Assembly: GCA_964645795.1 (NCBI GenBank)
Contig: CAZYCL010000005.1
Span: 124,771-173,047 of the forward strand
Direction: 5' to 3'
From: an uncultured Planctomycetales bacterium
Lineage (GTDB): Bacteria; Omnitrophota; Gorgyraeia; Gygaellales; Profunditerraquicolaceae
DNA length: 48,277 nucleotides
The position numbers and the translations under genes are program-made. Below, one piece after another: positions 527-26,271 of this stretch. The notes under the pieces are model-generated. The model saw only the letters and a list, made by a program, of their open reading frames with translations. It was not told the origin of the DNA and did not search any database. Position 1 is the stretch's first letter; each line of letters opens with the position of its first letter.

Positions 527-2959
527 TTACTCTTCCTCTTCGGCGATCACATGCGCCACACAGGAAACCCTATCTTTATCAGCTATCTTGATCAGGCGCA
601 CTCCCTGGGCAGAACGTCCGGTTTCCCGTATATCCTTTACCGCACACCTCAAGAACATGCCATTCTGGGTGATCACCATCAACTCGTCATTATCGGTGAC
701 GGGCTTAAGATTTACTGCCTCACCGTTTTTGTCGGTCACTTTGATATTAATAATGCCTTTGCCGCCGCGGCTGGTCAGGCGATACTCTTGGGCGAGCGTG
801 CGCTTGGCAAATCCGCGCTCCGTAACCGTTAAGATCGATGAGTCTTTGCTTACAAGGATCATGTCGATAACCTGGTCTTTTTTTGCCAAAGAAATGCCCC
901 TTACGCCTCCTGCCCCCCTGCCCATATCCCGGACTTTGACTTCGGAAAACCTGACGGCTTTTCCTTGACGGGTAGCAATCAAGAGCTCCTGCTTGCCGTC
1001 GGTAAGTTCGACTCCGACCAGGGCATCGTCCTTGTCCAGGCTTATTCCGATGATCCCGCCTTTGCGAGGATTGCCGTAGGCGTCCAGCTTGGTCTTTTTG
1101 ATCTTGCCGGTGCGGGTGACCATGACCAGGAACTTGTCCGGGGAAAACTCTTTTACCGGAATAGTGGAGCTGATTTTTGCCCCGGCTTCCATATGAACGA
1201 GGTTTACGATAGCCTTACCCTTGGAGGCGCGACCGGCCTGAGGGATCTCATAGACCTTAAGCCAATGCACCTGCCCCTTATCGGTAAATATCAACAGGTG
1301 ATCCTTGGTGGAGGCAACGAAGAGGTGCTCGACGAAATCCTCCTCCTTCACTTCCGCCCCTGTCACGCCTTTTCCGCCGCGCTTCTGTTTGCGGTAAGAC
1401 GACACCGGCAGACGCTTTATGTAGCCGCCGTGGCTGATGGTGACAACCACGTCTTCTTCGGCGATCAGGTCTTCCACTTCCAGCTCCGCGACCTCTCCTA
1501 CTATATCGGTGCGGCGCTCATCCCCATACTTCTTCTTCAGGTTTTCCAGCTCATCCTTAATAATGGCTTCTATCTTCTTCTCGGAGGCCAGTATCGCCCG
1601 GCACAGTTCTATTTTTTTCAAAAGCTCTGCGTATTCGGCGTCGATCTTGTCCCGCTCAAGCGCGGTAAGCCGCTGAAGCTGCATCTCCAGTATCGCCTGG
1701 GCCTGGATCTCCGAAAGATCGAACTCCTTAACAAGGTTTTTACGCGCGTCGTCCGTGCTCTTGGACGTCTTAATGGTCTTGATGATCTTATCTATGAACT
1801 TAAGGGCTATCTTTAGCCCTTCCAGGATGTGAGCCCGTTTTAGCGCCTTATCCAGCTCAAACTGCGTCCTGCGCCTGATGATGACCTTGCGGTGCTCAAC
1901 ATAAGCCTGCAGCATCTGGTGCAGATTGAGTACTTTGGGCCGGTTGTCAACGAGCGCCAGCATTATGACTCCGAAGGTTGTTTCCAGTTGTGTGTGCTTA
2001 AAAAGAAGGTTGAGTACTATCTGCGGCTCGGTGTCGCGTTTAAGCTCAACTACAATGCGCAGGCCGTCTTTGTCAGACTCGTCGCGTATATCGGATATTC
2101 CTTCCAGTTTTTTATCGTCGACCAGCTCGGCTATCGCTTCGATGATCGAGGCCTTTTGCACCTGATAGGGTATCTCGGAGATGACTATCAGGTCTTTGCC
2201 GTTCTTCTGGTGCTCTATCGTGGCCTTGGCCCTTACCGTAAGCTTTCCTCTGCCCGTGGTATAAGCATCCTTGATCCCTCCTTTGCCGCAGATAATGCCG
2301 CCGGTGGGGAAATCCGGCCCCTTAACGTGGCGCATCAGATCCTTTATTGGTGCTTCGGGATTATCCAAGAGGTAAATAGTGGCGTCGGCTACCTCATTTA
2401 AATTGTGCGGAGGGATATTGGTGGCCATGCCTACGGCTATGCCGCTTGAGCCGTTGACCAGCAGGTTAGGCAGGGCCGCGGGCAATAGCAGCGGCTCCTT
2501 CAAAGAGGCATCAAAGTTCGGCCCGAAGTTGACGGTTTCTTTATCGATATCCTCCAGCATCGCCTCGGAGATCGCTGCCAGTCGCGCTTCCGTATAGCGC
2601 ATCGCCGCTGCCGTGTCGCCGTCGATCGAACCGAAGTTACCCTGACCGTCAACCAAGGGATAGCGCAAAGAGAAATCCTGGGCCATCCTTACCAAAGTAT
2701 CGTATACCGCCACATCGCCGTGGGGATGATATTTGCCCAGGACCTCGCCGACGATACGGGCGCACTTCTTAAAAGGTTTGGAGTGGTCCAGGTTTAACTC
2801 CTGCATGGCGTAAAGGATCCTGCGGTGCACGGGCTTCAAGCCATCGCGCACATCCGGAAGCGCCCTGCCTACGATTACGCTCATGGCGTAATTAAGATAG
2901 GAGTCCTTGACCTCCTCTTCGATATAAACCGGGATTATCTTTTCGTTTCGCGTATACAT
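527..2959 (-). CDS. gyrA: DNA gyrase subunit A
   Basis: [30 protein letters not shown] (catalytic Tyr), GyrA-box QKRGGKG and C-terminal beta-pinwheel repeats; start placed at ATG 2959 (MYTRNEK) because the ORF-track extension runs into a repeat. Confidence 0.98.
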
Positions 2960-2961
2960 TG

Positions 2962-3039
2962 AATGAGGCCGCAACGCTTTGCTAAACCCAGCAAGGCGTT
3001 GTATGGCCTAATTAATCCCGCCGAGGCTACGAGGCGGGA
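2962..3039. repeat. Composite palindromic element: 52-bp AATGAGGCC...GGCCNAATT hairpin plus a 24-bp TCCCG...CGGGA hairpin
   Basis: Ungapped 37/52 match to 15229-15280 with compensatory stem changes; both copies are followed 2 nt later by TCCCG...CGGGA (here 3016-3039). Confidence 0.8.
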
Positions 3040-3046
3040 TGTGCCC

Positions 3047-5786
<2,740 letters not shown>

Positions 5787-5795
5787 TTCATCCGT

Positions 5796-6887
5796 TTAAT
5801 TCAGGCGCATAGGAAGAACTATATAAATATAGCCGTTGGTCCGGATTACGCCTGGCTTTTCACCGTCCGTTACTTCGACTTCGACGCTTTCGTCTTTCAG
5901 GCTCTTGAGAACATCCATGAGGTAGTTGGGGTTAAACCCGATTACCATCTCTTTGCCCTGATAATCTACCTCAACCTCTTCGCGAGACTCCCCGATATCC
6001 GGCGTGGATTTAGAGACTACCAGCTTGTTTTTAAAAATCTCCAGCCTTACAGCCTGATAGTCGGGGGTAGACAAAAGGGCCGCTCTTTTTATGGTAAGCA
6101 AAAGCTGGCTTCTGTTGGTGCGGATCCTGTTCTCCGAGGCCGCCGGGATCACCTGTTTATAATCCGGGAATTCACCCTCGATCAGGCGGGAGATTATTAC
6201 CACCTGGCCGAGGTCAAAGAGTATCTGGTTGTGACCTAAAACCAGCGAGAGCTCCCCTTCTTCTTTTAGATTCCGATTTAACTCATGAATAGTTTTAATG
6301 GGAACGATTAAAAGAAGGTCTTTGTCGGTGTCCTGTTTTAGTTTTTTTTCTGAAATAGCCAGCCTTTTCCCATCGGTAGCAACGAGCGTTATTGTATTTT
6401 TACTGATCTTAAATAATATTCCGCTTAAAATATAGCGGGTTTCGTCGATAGATACCGCGAAAGACGTAAGCTCCAACATTTGTTTAAGCAGGCCTTGATC
6501 GATCTTAATGACCTCTTTATCTTTAAACTCCGGCACCTTGGGAAACTCTTCTGAGCTCAACCCCATAATCTTGAATTGGCAGGCCTCGGTTTCAATTATC
6601 ACCGAATTGTTCTTTTTGGTCGATATCTCAATCTTGTCCGCGGGTAACTCTTTGACAATATCACTAAACCGTTTGGCGGGAACCGTAATTGCACCCTGCT
6701 CCTGGATATCAACGGGTATTACACAGGTTATACCTATATCGAGATCGGTTGCAGTAAGTTTTAAATTGCTTTTATAGGTTTCAATTAATATATTAGAAAG
6801 AATAGGTAAGGAAGATTTGGATGTAATGATGTTATAGACGGTTTGTATTCCTCCAAGGATGTCTTGTTTATCCACAGTTATTTTCAT
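5796..6887 (-). CDS. dnaN: DNA polymerase III beta sliding clamp
   Basis: LPILSNILI, ATDLDI, VATDGKRLA, SRLIEGEFPDY, IGFNPNYL, C-terminal VLPMRL; follows dnaA. Confidence 0.97.
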   Translation of the reverse strand: MKITVDKQDILGGIQTVYNIITSKSSLPILSNILIETYKSNLKLTATDLDIGITCVIPVDIQEQGAITVPAKRFSDIVKELPADKIEISTKKNNSVIIETEACQFKIMGLSSEEFPKVPEFKDKEVIKIDQGLLKQMLELTSFAVSIDETRYILSGILFKISKNTITLVATDGKRLAISEKKLKQDTDKDLLLIVPIKTIHELNRNLKEEGELSLVLGHNQILFDLGQVVIISRLIEGEFPDYKQVIPAASENRIRTNRSQLLLTIKRAALLSTPDYQAVRLEIFKNKLVVSKSTPDIGESREEVEVDYQGKEMVIGFNPNYLMDVLKSLKDESVEVEVTDGEKPGVIRTNGYIYIVLPMRLN

Positions 6888-7020
6888 GCCTATCTCCTTC
6901 TATTAATTAATTTAATAAAAATCGTGGTAGAAGTAATGATTAAAATTATATCTAATAAGCCCCGATCTTATTTATACAAAAGCACTTAGTTAAATATATG
7001 CTTGTTAACATCCGGTTATT
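6868..7020. other. oriC: Predicted oriC unwinding region (dnaA-dnaN intergenic)
   Basis: Very AT-rich; perfect DnaA box TTATCCACA at 6868-6876, near box TTATACAAA at 6972-6980, DnaA-trio-like tract TGGTAGAAGTAATGAT at 6925-6940; gene orientation diverges around this locus. Confidence 0.75.
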
Positions 7021-8352
7021 TCACTGTTTGATTATCTGAATTACCCTTTCCACCCTTTCATTCAGACCGGGGTTGGTTTTTATGTCTTCCTTGATTTTGT
7101 TATAAGAATGCAGAACGGTAGTATGGTCTTTGCCACCGAAGTATTTTCCAATCTCTGGCAGGGAAAGGTCGGTCAACTCCCGGCTTAGGTACATCGCTAT
7201 CTGTCTGGGCAAGACCACTGTTTTGTTGCGGCGCTTAGTCTTAAGCTCCGCCAAGCTTATAGCGAACTCTTCAACAACACATCGCTGAATAAAATCCACC
7301 GTAATAAGTTTTTTGGGTTCCCTCAACAGGTCCCGCAGGACTTCTTTGGTCAGGTCCAGGGTTATGGGTTTTTCCTCCAATAGAGAATAGGCTATAGTGC
7401 GTATAAGCGCGCCCTCCAATTCCCTGATGTTGGTCTTTATTAATTGCGCAATGAAGAATATTACATCGTCGGGCACCGAGACTGGTTCCCGCTCGATCTT
7501 TTTCTTTAAAATGGCTACGCGGGTTTCGAGGTCCGGAGGTTGAAGGTCGGTAGTAAGCCCCCAGCCGAATCGGGAAACCAGGCGCTCCTGCAGATTGGCG
7601 ATCTCTTTGGGAGGCCTGTCAGAAGAAAAGACTATCTGCTTATGCGCATCATAAAGAGTGTTAAAGGTGTGAAAGAACTCTTCTTGGGTCGACTCCTTGC
7701 CTGCGATGAAGTGTATATCGTCTATTACCAGAATATCGGCGTTTCTGTACTTCTGTCTGAAGGCGGCGGTGGAATGATGCTGTATGGCATCGATAAGCTC
7801 ATTGGTGAAACGCTCCGAAGATATATAGCAGATCTTCTGCAAAGGATTTTTCGCGCGCACATGATGGCATATGGCCTGAATAAGATGGGTTTTGCCCAGC
7901 CCCACCCCGCCATATATAAAAAGCGGGTTATAGGCCTTGGCAGGAGTATCGGCCACTGCCATAGAATAGGCAAACGCGTGCCTGTTCGAGGAGCCGATCA
8001 CAAAATTTTCGAAAGTATACCGCGGATTGAGCGCCTGCGAGCCGATCGACTCGGTAGCCGTTAGCTTGGGTTCATATGGCACCGGGTTATTTAAAAGAAC
8101 CGGGTCCTTGCGGGAGGTGACTACAAAGCTTACCCCGGTGCTGGCCCCGCAGGCACGGGACAGGATCTCTTCTATGGGCTGGCGATAGTGCTTCTCTACC
8201 CAATCCTTGAAGAAGCTGTCAGGCGCTTCCAGGCCCAGGCAGCCATCTTTCGACTCAGCTCTTAAGGGCTGAATCCAGGTCTGATAGGCCATATCGCCAA
8301 GCTTATTCTTAAGGTCGCTTTTTGCCTGCTCCCAGGCAGCCAGAACATCCAT
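7021..8352 (-). CDS. dnaA: Chromosomal replication initiator DnaA
   Basis: LNPRYTFENFVIG, YNPLFIYGGVGLGKTHL, IDDIHF, QEEFFHTFN, NIRELEGAL, GGKDHTTVLH. Confidence 0.99.
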   Translation of the reverse strand: MDVLAAWEQAKSDLKNKLGDMAYQTWIQPLRAESKDGCLGLEAPDSFFKDWVEKHYRQPIEEILSRACGASTGVSFVVTSRKDPVLLNNPVPYEPKLTATESIGSQALNPRYTFENFVIGSSNRHAFAYSMAVADTPAKAYNPLFIYGGVGLGKTHLIQAICHHVRAKNPLQKICYISSERFTNELIDAIQHHSTAAFRQKYRNADILVIDDIHFIAGKESTQEEFFHTFNTLYDAHKQIVFSSDRPPKEIANLQERLVSRFGWGLTTDLQPPDLETRVAILKKKIEREPVSVPDDVIFFIAQLIKTNIRELEGALIRTIAYSLLEEKPITLDLTKEVLRDLLREPKKLITVDFIQRCVVEEFAISLAELKTKRRNKTVVLPRQIAMYLSRELTDLSLPEIGKYFGGKDHTTVLHSYNKIKEDIKTNPGLNERVERVIQIIKQ

Positions 8353-14609: not shown

Positions 14610-15152
14610 GTGACGAGGGAGAAGAATGTTGTTTTGGGGGTCACGGCGAGCATAGCCATTTACAAGGCCTGTGAGATTGTGCGCCGGTTAAGAGAAAATG
14701 GGTTCTGCGTCAGGGTGGTCATGACCGAAGAAGCCTGCCAGCTTATCCGCCCGGTGGTCTTCCAAAGCCTTTCCGCAAACAAAGTTTACTGCGGGATGTT
14801 CGAGGAGCCGGGAAGCTGGGAGGTAGAACATATATCTTTGGCTGATAAGGCCGAGCTTGTTTTGATCGCGCCGGCAACCGCAAATATCATCGGGAAGCTT
14901 GCGGGCGGCATCTGCGATGACCTTTTGACTTGCGCTGTATGTGCGACCAGGGCCCAGGTGCTTATCTGTCCGGCGATGAACGAGAACATGTATAAGAATG
15001 ATATCGTCCAGGAGAACATCGCAAGGCTAAAGAAGCACGGTTACAGGTTTGTCGAGCCGAAGGTAGGAAATCTTGCATGCGGCAGGCGCGGGCCAGGGTG
15101 CCTGGCGGAAGTAGATACCATAGTAAAAGAAGCGCTAAGGCTCTTGAAATAA
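14610..15152 (+). CDS. coaC: Phosphopantothenoylcysteine decarboxylase (CoaC flavoprotein domain only)
   Basis: VLGVTASIAIYKA, HISLAD, APATANIIGK, DDLLTC, PAMNENM, LACGRRGPG; GTG start with GGGAGG RBS; no CoaB domain. Confidence 0.9.
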   Translation: MTREKNVVLGVTASIAIYKACEIVRRLRENGFCVRVVMTEEACQLIRPVVFQSLSANKVYCGMFEEPGSWEVEHISLADKAELVLIAPATANIIGKLAGGICDDLLTCAVCATRAQVLICPAMNENMYKNDIVQENIARLKKHGYRFVEPKVGNLACGRRGPGCLAEVDTIVKEALRLLK

Positions 15153-15154
15153 TT

Positions 15155-15226
15155 GGCGACGTAGCCAAGTGGTAAGGCAGCTCTCTGCAAAAGAGCTATT
15201 CAGCGGTTCAAGTCCGCTCGTCGCCT
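15155..15226 (+). tRNA. tRNA-Cys (GCA), CCA not encoded
   Basis: GGCGACG/CGTCGCC acceptor, anticodon stem GCTCT/AGAGC with loop CTGCAAA, T-loop TTCAAGT. Confidence 0.95.
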
Positions 15227-15228
15227 TA

Positions 15229-15334
15229 AATGAGGCCATAATACTTTGCCGGGCCCGGCAAAGTATTGTTGGGCCGAATTTCTCCCGAGCTTGCACTGAA
15301 CCGCCAACAGCGGTCAATGCGTATAAGCTCGGGA
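15229..15334. repeat. Second copy of the composite palindromic element (52-bp hairpin plus 52-bp TCCCG...CGGGA hairpin)
   Basis: Contains the perfect palindrome AATACTTTGCCGGGCCCGGCAAAGTATT; TCCCGAGCTT...AAGCTCGGGA at 15283-15334; homologous to 2962-3039. Confidence 0.8.
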
Positions 15335-15351
15335 CTCAATACTTAAATTCC

Positions 15352-15587
15352 GGGCGGTTAGTTCAATTTAAATTTTCCGACAAGGAAAATTTAAATTGAT
15401 CCTTTTCGAACGTCGTTTTGCGACAAGCAAAACAGTGAGAAAAGGATCTAATTGTTGGATAGCACAGAGGATTTCGGGCGGTTAGTTCAGCCCCTGCAGA
15501 AAGCGCAGGGGCTCCCGCGGATGCAAAAAGCGCATCCTTGGTCGTTGGTAAAAGGTGTTCACTACCCGCCAGCGACTAAAAGATTTC
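15352..15587 (+). pseudogene. Two aborted 5' copies of tRNA-Val, each followed by paired hairpins
   Basis: GGGCGGTTAGTTCA at 15352-15365 and GATTTCGGGCGGTTAGTTCAG at 15470-15490, the latter identical to 15582-15602 (leader plus nt 1-15 of tRNA-Val). Confidence 0.8.
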
Positions 15588-15664
15588 GGGCGGTTAGTTC
15601 AGTTGGTTAGAACGCCACATTGACATTGTGGAGGTCACAGGTTCGAGTCCTGTATCGCCCACCA
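15588..15664 (+). tRNA. tRNA-Val (GAC), CCA encoded
   Basis: Cloverleaf with anticodon stem CCACA/TGTGG, loop TTGACAT, T-loop TTCGAGT, 3' ACCA. Confidence 0.96.
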
Positions 15665-15688
15665 TAACAGCTCGTAAAGCGTTAGTCG

Positions 15689-15743
15689 GTTGCGTAGCGC
15701 GAAACGTAAGGCGTCTTGCGCTAAACGTTACGCGCTACGCAAC
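15689..15743. repeat. Long inverted repeat between tRNA-Val and tRNA-Leu
   Basis: 13-bp perfect arms GTTGCGTAGCGCG/CGCGCTACGCAAC, extended by AACGT/ACGTT after one mismatch. Confidence 0.75.
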
Positions 15744-15766
15744 GGATAAACGTAGCACGATAATCA

Positions 15767-15849
15767 GGGCAAGTGGTGGAATGGCATACACGACAGACTT
15801 AAAATCTGTTGATCGCAAGGTCTTGAGGGTTCGACTCCCTCCTTGCCCA
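15767..15849 (+). tRNA. tRNA-Leu (TAA), CCA not encoded
   Basis: GGGCAAG/CTTGCCC acceptor, anticodon stem ACAGA/TCTGT with loop CTTAAAA, long variable arm, T-loop TTCGACT. Confidence 0.95.
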
Positions 15850-15863
15850 ATGCTCTAAAAATT

Positions 15864-16613
15864 ATGATAAAAATATTTATATTAATGGTTTCTACCATTG
15901 TTTTATATACGTGCGTCTCTTTTGCCGAGACGGTTTATTTAAAAAACGGTAAGGCCATAAACGGCAGAATTCTCGAAACAACCGATAAATACGTCCGGAT
16001 CGAATTCGAGGGCGTGCCGCTCACTTATTATTTCAACGAGATCGAAAAGATAGAAGGCCTGAATGCCGCTTTGGTCCCGATGGCGCCGAGTGCCTCCGGA
16101 AAGCTTTATCGGGACAAGGAATACGGGTTTGAGCTCCGGGCGCCAAGAGGGTGGCATATTAGCAAGATTGCCCCCGGCACAGAAGGGACAAAGTTGGGAG
16201 GGGTCAAATTCACGAAAAACCCGGCAGACGAAGCGAACCCTTTTCCGATAATAGGGATAACCGTGGACGCCGTCGGGACCTCACCATACAATACCGGAAT
16301 CAACAGCGCCCTCGATTTTGCGAGGAAGATTTTTGAAGGCCAAAGAAGAATGGCCGCCAGCAAGGGCGGAAAATTTCAGGCGATAGAGGAGCCTCGCGAG
16401 ATAGAGATAGGCGGACAAAGGGCCGCGAGGTTCATCACTAAACTGATCTCCTCCAGCGGCAAAGCTATGTGCGTGGCAGCGTACAAGTTTAAACAGGCCG
16501 ATATAATAATCTCGGTTGCCGGGGTAGATGTGCCAGATACCTTTCAAGGCAGCCTAAGGGATTTTGAAGAGACGGCCAACAGTTTCAAGTTTACCGGGCC
16601 GGCAGGCAACTAG
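15864..16613 (+). CDS. Hypothetical exported protein (signal peptide, small beta-rich N-domain, possible PsbP-like C-domain)
   Basis: Hydrophobic N-terminus ending SFA-ETVYLKNG; YRDKEYGFELRAPRGW...FEETANSFKF pattern; the ORF-track start at 15843 overlaps tRNA-Leu. Confidence 0.7.
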   Translation: MIKIFILMVSTIVLYTCVSFAETVYLKNGKAINGRILETTDKYVRIEFEGVPLTYYFNEIEKIEGLNAALVPMAPSASGKLYRDKEYGFELRAPRGWHISKIAPGTEGTKLGGVKFTKNPADEANPFPIIGITVDAVGTSPYNTGINSALDFARKIFEGQRRMAASKGGKFQAIEEPREIEIGGQRAARFITKLISSSGKAMCVAAYKFKQADIIISVAGVDVPDTFQGSLRDFEETANSFKFTGPAGN

Positions 16614-26042: not shown

Positions 26043-26058
26043 AGTGCTAGAAGATAAG

Positions 26059-26212
26059 ATTCCCTGCGGTGCGCGTTGGAACATTGATAATTGTTGAGCC
26101 AACACCAACAATCAGGGGCCCAAAAGTTCCCGGCGCCTAAGGCTACGGGACAGGGTACCCACCTGAAACCAAATGGTTCAGACTATCACTCTGACGGCAC
26201 AATGCGGGGATT
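26059..26212 (+). ncRNA. ssrS: 6S RNA
   Basis: Ends pair as a rod (TCCCTGCGGTGC with GCACAATGCGGGGA); 3' internal hairpin CTGAAACCAAATGGTTCAG resembles the conserved 6S motif; typical position after pheT. Boundaries approximate. Confidence 0.8.
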
Positions 26213-26216
26213 GAAT

Positions 26217-26271
26217 ATCCGTCCCGCCGCTCTGGCCGGTGCAAAAACCGGATCCGGAATGCGGGACGGAT
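26217..26271. repeat. TCCCG...CGGGA-type hairpin downstream of 6S RNA (may double as terminator)
   Basis: 11-bp perfect arms ATCCGTCCCGC/GCGGGACGGAT with inner CCGGT/ACCGG hairpin; followed by a T-rich tract. Confidence 0.7.

Follow-up and report, generated by a model that had tools for sequence, protein, structure and literature searches.

A threefold tRNA-Val start in an Omnitrophota bacterium and the possible leader module behind it

Why does the beginning of one tRNA gene occur three times in succession in the chromosome of an Omnitrophota bacterium? The stretch of 48,277 nucleotides (nt) analysed here, called the window throughout, contains an intact tRNA-Val(GAC) gene preceded by two copies of its own 5′ end (units 1 and 2), each of which runs into a pair of hairpins. 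An earlier note had read this stutter as the product of repeated hairpin insertion into the tRNA gene, every round leaving a dead 5′ fragment while an intact gene was regenerated downstream. We compared the window with 80 Omnitrophota species loci anchored on thrS (the relatives; loci are referred to by L numbers), using a covariance model of the Val leader unit (R1) and another of a tRNA-trailer module, H1/H2 (R2). The sequence searched was 731 kb of Omnitrophota for R1 and 781 kb for R2, ~0.78 Mb in all and not whole genomes. The comparison leads to a different reading, to which we give an even chance: the stutter may consist of two tandem copies of a lineage-conserved tRNA-Val(GAC) leader module instead of fresh insertion debris, with a role in folding or processing of the precursor tRNA. 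The module has been inherited at a single fixed site, its structure is under constraint, and it co-varies with the resident tRNA.

The repetition itself is real. The 14-mer GGGCGGTTAGTTCA occurs exactly three times in the window (15352, 15476 and 15588), always on the plus strand, and 0.37 matches with up to two mismatches would be expected there by chance. The copies are spaced by 124 and 112 nt, as the earlier note had observed, and the repetition includes the leader, extending to 21 nt with it (GATTTCGGGCGGTTAGTTCAG twice; AATTCC... for the first copy). tRNA genes were called with ARAGORN and the Rfam tRNA model; both assign tRNA-Val(GAC) to the third copy alone, and neither detected a cloverleaf in the two upstream copies, which end at nt 14/15 plus a D-loop remnant. 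Both are thus 5′ pieces of tRNA-Val broken in the D-loop, after nt 14/15, by a hairpin pair, with the intact gene downstream, just as first described. In unit 1 the hairpins consist of 16-bp perfect arms (15363-15378/15384-15399) and a second stem (15393-15407/15439-15453), and in unit 2 the hairpin cores pair as TTTTCCGACAAGGAAAA/TTTTGCGACAAGCAAAA and TGCAGAAAGCGCA/TGCAAAAAGCGCA. The whole stretch folds far more stably than its shuffles (z = -7.2). The remnant in unit 1, GTTGGATAGCAC (15454-15465), does match tRNA nt 15-26 at 10 of 12 positions. Taken by itself the resemblance is weak, as a window would contain 2.4 matches of this kind by chance; it becomes meaningful only through where it lies (~1e-3 for that position) and through the TTGG motif shared with homologous units.

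Could the arrangement be an assembly artefact? Logan assemblies of five different sequencing runs, aligned to the window from 15153 onwards, reproduce 15153-15661 with 0 mismatches, and two of the five span both fragments into the tRNA. Misassembly, which the earlier note had named as fatal to its own interpretation, is ruled out by these base-for-base identical sequences, and the population heterogeneity that it had proposed looking for is absent from the five assemblies of the same species. The arrangement is therefore real and not polymorphic in the sampled runs. The short-read contigs that carry the downstream open reading frame (ORF) all break inside tRNA-Val, as an artefact might predict, but they are uninformative; with identical sequence across both units in five independent assemblies and homologous arrangements in many other genomes, we consider the chance of an artefact negligible.

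Unit 2 has the anatomy of a compact three-way junction. On the plus strand, a leader AGAGGATTTC (15466-15475), 8/12 identical to that of the real tRNA, precedes region 1 (15476-15490), an exact copy of tRNA-Val nt 1-15 in which nt 2-11 provide the 5′ strand of the closing helix P1. The hairpins P2, GCCCCTGC-AGAAAGC-GCAGGGGC (15490-15512), and P3 (15514-15541), with its core GGATGC-AAAAAGC-GCATCC (15519-15537) and outer pairs, occupy the D-loop site of this tRNA mimic; across units, 6/7 pairs of P2 and 9/10 of P3 covary. A conserved joiner, TCGTTGGTAAAAGGTGTTC (15542-15560), within which the 10 units of the R1 seed alignment do not vary in TCxTTGG or in the TC of GTTC, leads to region 2, ACTACCCGCC (15561-15570). 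Region 2 is the 3′ strand of P1, here called the anti-strand, and closes the junction; it is 9/10 complementary to region 1 (GGCGGTTAGT) and equally to the 5′ end of the real tRNA, which follows after an A-rich leader (15571-15587). The folded part of the module measures ~95 bases and its A-rich leader 10-25 nt. In minimum-free-energy (MFE) folds, the predicted 1:2 and 2:3 pairings of the three regions are near iso-energetic, and the predictions alternate between both. As in a riboswitch-like switch, the anti-strand would thus have two mutually exclusive partners, the mimic and the tRNA 5′ end.

The same plan recurs in other members of the phylum. Relatives carry GGGCTCATAGCTCAG (tRNA-Val nt 1-15), a P2 hairpin (e.g. 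TCCCGCC-AAAAAGC-GGCGGGA), a P3 hairpin CCTCGGGATGC-AAAAGC-GCATCCCTCG, the joiner in the form TCGTTGG..GGTGTTC, GCTATGAGC as the complement of nt 3-11, an A-rich leader and the real tRNA; unit 2 of the window follows exactly this plan, with its own tRNA 5′ sequence GGGCGGTTAGT and the complement that matches it. Units of this kind lie directly upstream of tRNA-Val(GAC), on the tRNA strand, in 11 of the 80 thrS-anchored loci and in at least four further distinct metagenome contigs. An exact-word scan detected tRNA-Val 5′-end copies upstream of tRNA-Val in 13 relatives' loci and the window, and no such copies for tRNA-Leu. R1 gave 16 matches, all immediately upstream of tRNA-Val on the same strand except the weakest (L043; 15.3 bits, E 0.84), which is probably due to chance. 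Metagenomes were searched with the pattern TCAGN{40,70}GTCRTTGGN{9,11}TTCRCTA, which proved too loose and gave mostly chance matches among those listed; among the same listed matches, R1 confirmed units in L141, L158, L171 (two copies) and L202, and L140 turned out to be the locus of L054.

Compensatory changes in several species mark the R1 family as a probable conserved structured RNA motif. Ten aligned units showed 88% pairing, with 17 pairs changed on both sides. In the final alignment of 17 units from 14 fetched loci, 88.5% of cells were paired, against 32-41% (~35%) when the partners were slid; 18 of the 27 pairs had double changes, and 0 of 500 shuffles did as well. Within the unit helices, G.U pairs (11) outnumber A.C pairs (4). 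No Rfam 15 family for the Val units, the H1/H2 module or the tRNA-Glu modules described below was detected at gathering or E-value thresholds, and E-value scans of window 15100-15900, L171 and L206 returned weak chance matches only. The literature supplied background on partial tRNA fragments and SegB, and no description of the Val unit was found in it. As judged from alignment and predicted structure, the R1 family is probably a new structured RNA motif; it is absent from Rfam. A hammerhead identity was considered and rejected by eye, the junction strands being unlike the hammerhead core.

The first 15 nt of the module follow the resident tRNA. Most relatives have GGGCTCATAGC paired with GCTATGAGC; where the window tRNA starts differently, the mimic and the anti-strand follow, so that three regions co-vary. 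The acceptor/D 5′ strand of the window tRNA-Val is itself unusual (GGGCGGTTAGTT, 15588-15601; GGGCTCATAGCT in most relatives, GGGCGGTTAGCT in L053), and both upstream units share the window variant. At least 14 of the 15 mimic positions are identical to the genome's own tRNA in 12 of the 17 long-form units; the copy starts exactly at nt 1, and the 12 nt upstream are mostly unrelated. In unit 0 of L054, the mimic has diverged and the anti-strand is still a perfect match to the next 5′ copy. Taken together, the alignments speak for a match that is maintained between mimic, anti-strand and tRNA 5′ end; a helix that had only itself to pair with would drift from the tRNA sequence.

These observations divide the original interpretation. 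Interrupted 5′ copies are present, and their number does vary among related genomes, from 0 to 1 or 2 (tandem pairs in L007, L040, L054, L171 and the window), as repeated insertion would have it. What finds no support is the idea of dead and recent debris of this genome: copy 2 has homologues at the same place across ~70-75% ThrRS identity, its three helices covary, and its first 15 nt track the resident tRNA while adjacent leaders have diverged. A conserved leader shared with distant relatives, which the earlier note had said would count against its reading, is nearly what was found, but the element is patchy and not fixed. Carriers are scattered over the ThrRS tree with only ~70-75% identity between them, and the short forms in L024, L026, L029 and L034 are deletion derivatives that have GAGGATTTCGCTATGAG in common with the long form of L016; in those of L024 and L034, which lack P2 and P3, the mimic is decaying. 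With distant carriers and compact clusters in most relatives, the unit is old but dispensable. Unit 2 is probably an undescribed structured leader instead of dead debris.

How might such a leader act? The module would be transcribed within the Cys/Leu/Val precursor, and a promoter scan that found no sigma-70-like promoter inside the cluster is consistent with co-transcription. With the anti-strand paired with the mimic, the tRNA would be free to fold and to be cut by RNase P; pairing of the anti-strand to the 5′ end of the real tRNA would block its acceptor and D stems. The module could then be an insulator for pre-tRNA-Val or a switch in its folding or processing. Units may be duplicated or precisely deleted through slippage at the 15-nt direct repeats, which would account for 0, 1 or 2 copies and for the compact 'empty' clusters. 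If the module works as RNA, it would constitute a new structured family and a rare instance of a tRNA gene that carries both a mimic of its own 5′ end and a strand complementary to it, which would suggest that an uncultured phylum regulates tRNA maturation or subjects it to quality control.

Several observations weigh against this proposal. Most relatives do without the unit and have compact Leu-Val spacers of 4-12 nt. The covariation of P1 comes mainly from one lineage, that of the window, and pairing counts are somewhat inflated because alignment A3 was fitted to the model. The identity of mimic and tRNA could come from a copying mechanism instead of selection. Unit 1 is without the joiner, and its anti-strand is weak and rich in G.U pairs. 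Finally, the MFE of the Val units shows no asymmetry between sense and antisense strands (p = 0.48), for which reason an RNA-level rather than a DNA-level role is not established; on the sequence evidence, action of the unit as RNA is favoured, not proven.

The missing strand bias is also what one would expect if the unit were a DNA-level site for recombination, replication or cruciform formation, in which quasi-palindrome template switching keeps the three regions concerted. P2 shares TCCCGCC/GGCGGGA inverted repeats with the tRNA-Glu and tRNA-Cys modules, their interiors pairing poorly, and H1 loops occur in both orientations, GACAA and TTGTC. Such a site seems very improbable to us, since the unit always has the orientation of the tRNA, G.U pairs outnumber A.C pairs, the H1/H2 module does fold with a sense bias (p = 0.01) and no associated recombinase is present. 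If the unit does act as RNA, it might instead be a stand-alone small RNA gene derived from the tRNA, released from the precursor when RNase P cuts at the next 5′ end and acting in trans, for instance as a decoy for a tRNA-Val-binding factor. The conserved junction with its invariant joiner nucleotides, boundaries that coincide with tRNA +1 and tandem copies, as in other processed repeat RNAs, would suit such a gene. We nevertheless rate it as improbable: P1 usually leaves G1 and G2 unpaired (6 of 17 units form pair 2-130), so the unit is not an obvious RNase P substrate, no CCA-like tail is present, and a role in trans would leave the match of the anti-strand to the tRNA unexplained.

Unit 1 differs from the leader module described above. 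An exact copy of tRNA-Val nt 1-14 (15352-15365, plus strand) is followed by a hairpin pair (15367-15448, plus strand) that R2 identifies as an H1/H2 module: H1, an AT-rich perfect hairpin, is ATTTAAATTTTCC-GACAA-GGAAAATTTAAAT, and H2, long and irregular, with GCGAGCG strands that recur and a C-GACAA-G hairpin inside it, is GATCCTTTTC..TTTTGC-GACAA-GCAAAA..GAAAAGGATC. The score of this segment (80.6 bits, E 2.8e-18) is partly circular and not independent, because it is one of the 11 seeds of R2, a model based on tRNA-Cys, -Leu and -Val trailers. The model also matched six tRNA trailers outside its seed set. H1/H2 has 14 covarying pairs, folds with the sense bias noted above and has no match in Rfam. 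Of its 17 full-length matches, 16 begin 0-3 nt past the 3′ end of tRNA-Cys, -Leu or -Val; the 17th, in the window, stands behind a 14-nt Val fragment and not behind a complete tRNA. These hairpins are not an insertion specific to copy 1, the module being otherwise a 3′ trailer of tRNA genes. Because its hairpins match a module that is otherwise placed at tRNA 3′ ends, copy 1 reads, at the level of sequence, as a Val 5′ fragment fused to a tRNA-trailer module.

The remainder of unit 1 resembles the long form only in part. A possible anti-strand, CTAATTGTT (15448-15456, plus strand), pairs in the MFE fold with GGCGGTTAG, in region 1 or in that of the next unit, through four G.U pairs; it is suggestive only, and shuffles yield such a match at a frequency of ~0.7%. 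The D-loop remainder GTTGGATAGCAC (15454-15465, plus strand) is the counterpart of the TCGTTGG motif in long-form units. R1 found no match in 15352-15475. Unit 1 would be a rearranged version of the leader module, with H1/H2 as its hairpin pair. It probably arose together with the Cys-Val-Leu rearrangement that is unique to the window genome. No unique path could be reconstructed; the routes considered are a deletion within a full copy of Val plus trailer, and replacement of P2/P3 by H1/H2 during the Leu/Val rearrangement.

As a motif not described before, H1/H2 is found at tRNA 3′ ends in many Omnitrophota. Further H1/H2 modules, besides that of the window, lie in L171 (236-319, 414-498 and 834-914), L054 (3903-3986), L005 (3582-3663) and other loci. 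Of 229 tRNAs searched for simple hairpins, 44 had a perfect AT-rich one no more than 8 nt from the 3′ end, in most cases abutting it directly. A second H2 class starts with (A/C)TCCGAGG... or TCCCGAGC....

The tRNA-Glu locus, which the earlier note had drawn on as a parallel, does resemble the Val locus and extends beyond the window. In the window and four other Omnitrophota (L203-L206), a GIY-YIG gene and the intact tRNA follow a 5′ partial tRNA-Glu whose loops contain hairpin pairs. In the window, all on the minus strand, an 87-aa GIY-YIG ORF (PF01541) ends inside the intact tRNA-Glu (23-97) and is preceded by the partial copy (within 23-521), in which TCCCGC..GCGGGA hairpin pairs occupy the D- and anticodon loops. 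The arrangement lies at ~2870-3450 in L203-L206, after gyrA in L203, L204 and L206 and in a different neighbourhood in L205. The anticodon-loop pair has the same position in all five, and a D-loop pair is present in the window and L205. The GIY-YIG gene, of 84-88 aa, has the partial copy as its 5′ untranslated region and its stop codon within the intact tRNA-Glu; partial copies track lineage-specific tRNA substitutions. Beside the Val units there is no nuclease or other enzyme gene, a difference that the earlier note had already pointed out.

Partial copies are also found on the other side of tRNA genes. Downstream of the intact gene, 3′ partial tRNA-Glu or tRNA-Cys copies have a two-hairpin module in the T- or anticodon loop (L203 ~3320-3420; L205 ~3312-3500, two in tandem; L206 ~3325-3440; L045 3440-3550; L072 1455-1570). 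In L072, the junction is chimeric, the left flank of the module being T-arm-like and the right flank resembling the tRNA-Cys anticodon loop. Between tRNA-Cys and tRNA-Leu of L054, a 219-aa ORF (2824-3483) encodes a double-motif LAGLIDADG homing endonuclease (PF14528). Cys-Leu spacers of ~670-820 nt occur in L011, L025, L030, L032, L036, L038, L039, L044, L050, L061, L062, L064 and L067; among these spacers and that of L054, the two examined were those of L054 and L030, and the latter contains a different ORF of 235 aa. In L206, gyrA (1-2874) has an intein with a LAGLIDADG domain according to precomputed Pfam matches, which adds a further homing element to this neighbourhood. Partial tRNA copies with paired hairpins are a general feature of these genomes.

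Because such hairpin-decorated copies are widespread, a mobile or selfish origin stays alive. Mobile two-hairpin elements would hit loop positions of tRNA genes, the broken 5′ copy would persist and the intact gene would be regenerated, leaving selfish or neutral scars. In several genomes, partial copies of tRNA-Glu and tRNA-Cys have hairpin pairs where the D-, anticodon and T-loops would be, as this process would leave them, and the decaying short forms and patchy distribution of the Val units would fit it too; the hairpins of copy 1 are found elsewhere in tRNA 3′ trailers, so these modules change place, and homing-endonuclease genes crowd the clusters (GIY-YIG at tRNA-Glu, LAGLIDADG between Cys and Leu in L054). 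We regard this origin as unlikely, though with a chance that deserves serious weight. In the sequence searched, the Val unit stays at a single site and is never dispersed, it covaries across species whose divergence is saturated, and its mimic is identical to the tRNA despite diverging flanking leaders; no enzyme gene adjoins it, the five assemblies show no copy-number polymorphism, and no units were found in viral contigs. Even if selfish, the elements would represent an unrecognised remodelling of tRNA loci through paired hairpins at loop positions, partial copies and nearby homing-endonuclease genes.

A bolder form of the leader-module reading joins these loci. As an RNA device not described before, the 5′-mimic and anti-strand that close the conserved three-way junction might respond to a signal and so gate how tRNA-Val folds and is matured by RNase P, within a phylum-wide two-hairpin system at the D-, anticodon- and T-loops of partial Val, Glu and Cys tRNA copies that would be a possible bacterial counterpart of mobile tRNA introns. 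We hold this to be doubtful. If true, it would amount to riboswitch-like control of a tRNA and not of an mRNA. Models R1 and R2 also have a practical value, as they let annotators recognise these elements and avoid labelling them as tRNA pseudogenes or assembly noise.

Each of the closest known systems shares one aspect with the Val unit and fails at least one defining test. Partial tRNA copies beside intact genes are the classic footprint of integrative elements, as integrases that target tRNA genes (tycheposons, genomic islands) leave partial-tRNA direct repeats (PMC9897764; bioRxiv 10.1101/2020.12.28.424599). The Val units are alike in that a tRNA fragment is repeated, sometimes in tandem, beside an intact, functional gene, and Omnitrophota loci also hold 3′ partial copies; the repeats could therefore be attachment (att) sites left by a since-deleted element that carried an integrase. 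We find this highly unlikely. The repeat is the 5′ end of the tRNA (nt 1-14/16; 14-15 nt in the Val units) and not a 3′ segment. Only 97-110 nt separate the repeats (intervals of 112-124 nt), with no ORF or other cargo, and this interior is conserved, covaries across species and holds a strand complementary to the repeat. No integrase or mobile-element gene was seen between the repeats or in the flanks, which consist of a flavoprotein gene, tRNAs and thrS. In viral contigs, 35 pattern matches were found and none was confirmed by R1; the scan thus yielded no viral counterpart and no evidence for a phage-borne attP.

Other comparisons are equally partial. Riboswitch and attenuator platforms likewise have multi-helix junctions, a P1 3′ strand with an alternative downstream partner and tandem copies; in the Val unit, however, the tRNA 5′ end takes the place of the terminator or ribosome-binding site as that partner, the P1 5′ strand copies the regulated RNA itself and no ligand is known. 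The 178-bp repeats 3′ of Escherichia coli tyrT, which give rise to rtT RNA (RF00391), are tandem units that each contain a short terminal piece of the tRNA and are co-transcribed with and processed from the tRNA precursor. Like the Val units, they adjoin a tRNA gene, but they lie at its 3′ side with the tRNA 3′ end and have no three-way junction or anti-strand; Rfam found no match to RF00391 in the window. Archaeal non-canonical tRNA introns and split tRNAs also place structured extra sequence at D-, anticodon- and T-loop positions, whereas the units here are bacterial, show no evident bulge-helix-bulge and interrupt partial copies with an uninterrupted gene adjoining. Repetitive extragenic palindromes (REP) and their mosaic elements (BIME), miniature inverted-repeat transposable elements (MITE) and IS200/IS605-derived palindromes likewise consist of intergenic hairpins in pairs, in which stem bases are conserved and interiors vary. 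The Val unit differs from these dispersed repeats in having no other copies in the 731 kb and no transposase nearby, and H1/H2 modules lie at tRNA 3′ ends, the window copy apart. One could take the 14-21-nt direct repeat for a target-site duplication, but the 'left inverted repeat' would then be the tRNA copy itself. The Val element is best classed as a conserved structured leader that derives from a tRNA and has not been described before.

The surrounding cluster has been rearranged in the window. The order Cys-Leu-Val-thrS holds in nearly all of the 80 relatives' loci (every one where these tRNAs were found), with spacers of 3 to ~820 nt, whereas the window has Cys-Val-Leu and an additional 256-aa ORF without a Pfam match ahead of thrS. 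All on the plus strand, the cluster begins with tRNA-Cys(GCA) (15155-15226; ARAGORN, and Rfam with 67.5 bits). Two hairpins follow it (15240-15334): 15240-15267 is a perfect palindrome, and 15283-15334 reads TCCCGAGCTT...AAGCTCGGGA around an inner CCGC-CAACA-GCGG. Both are similar to the second class of tRNA trailer modules, found in the trailers of L021, L055, L064, L075 and L077. After the two Val units come the intact tRNA-Val(GAC) (15588-15664; ARAGORN, and Rfam with 71.4 bits) and tRNA-Leu(UAA) (15767-15849), which precedes Val in every relative examined. The Val-Leu spacer is filled by a long imperfect hairpin of 28 bp (15680-15752; 86% complementary), detected in an inverted-repeat scan and unlike both H1/H2 and the Val units. 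In L055 (~3790-3830) and L057 (~2753-2800), simple hairpins upstream of tRNA-Val have a tRNA-Val-like 5′ arm (GGGCTCATGG.. and GGCTCATGGCTTATAG..) and may be degenerate relatives of the unit.

The window comes from the chromosome of an Omnitrophota bacterium, close to the replication origin. In order and size, its large minus-strand ORFs (527-8352) match gyrA, gyrB, dnaN and dnaA; gyrB/gyrA synteny in relatives and a switch in GC skew support this assignment. The best relatives of the window ThrRS are all Omnitrophota, at no more than 75% identity. TCCCG..CGGGA hairpins were considered as a dispersed repeat, since nine occur in the window against 2.4 expected; four of them lie in the tRNA-Glu leader, and the hairpin was rejected as not being high-copy. 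Sense and antisense folding energies of TCCCGC hairpins did not differ significantly. At gathering thresholds, Rfam recognised only five tRNAs and a 6S RNA in the window. The 6S RNA (RF00013, 54 bits) lies at 26058-26214, with TCCCG..CGGGA hairpins inside it (26128-26150) and just past it (26222-26266).

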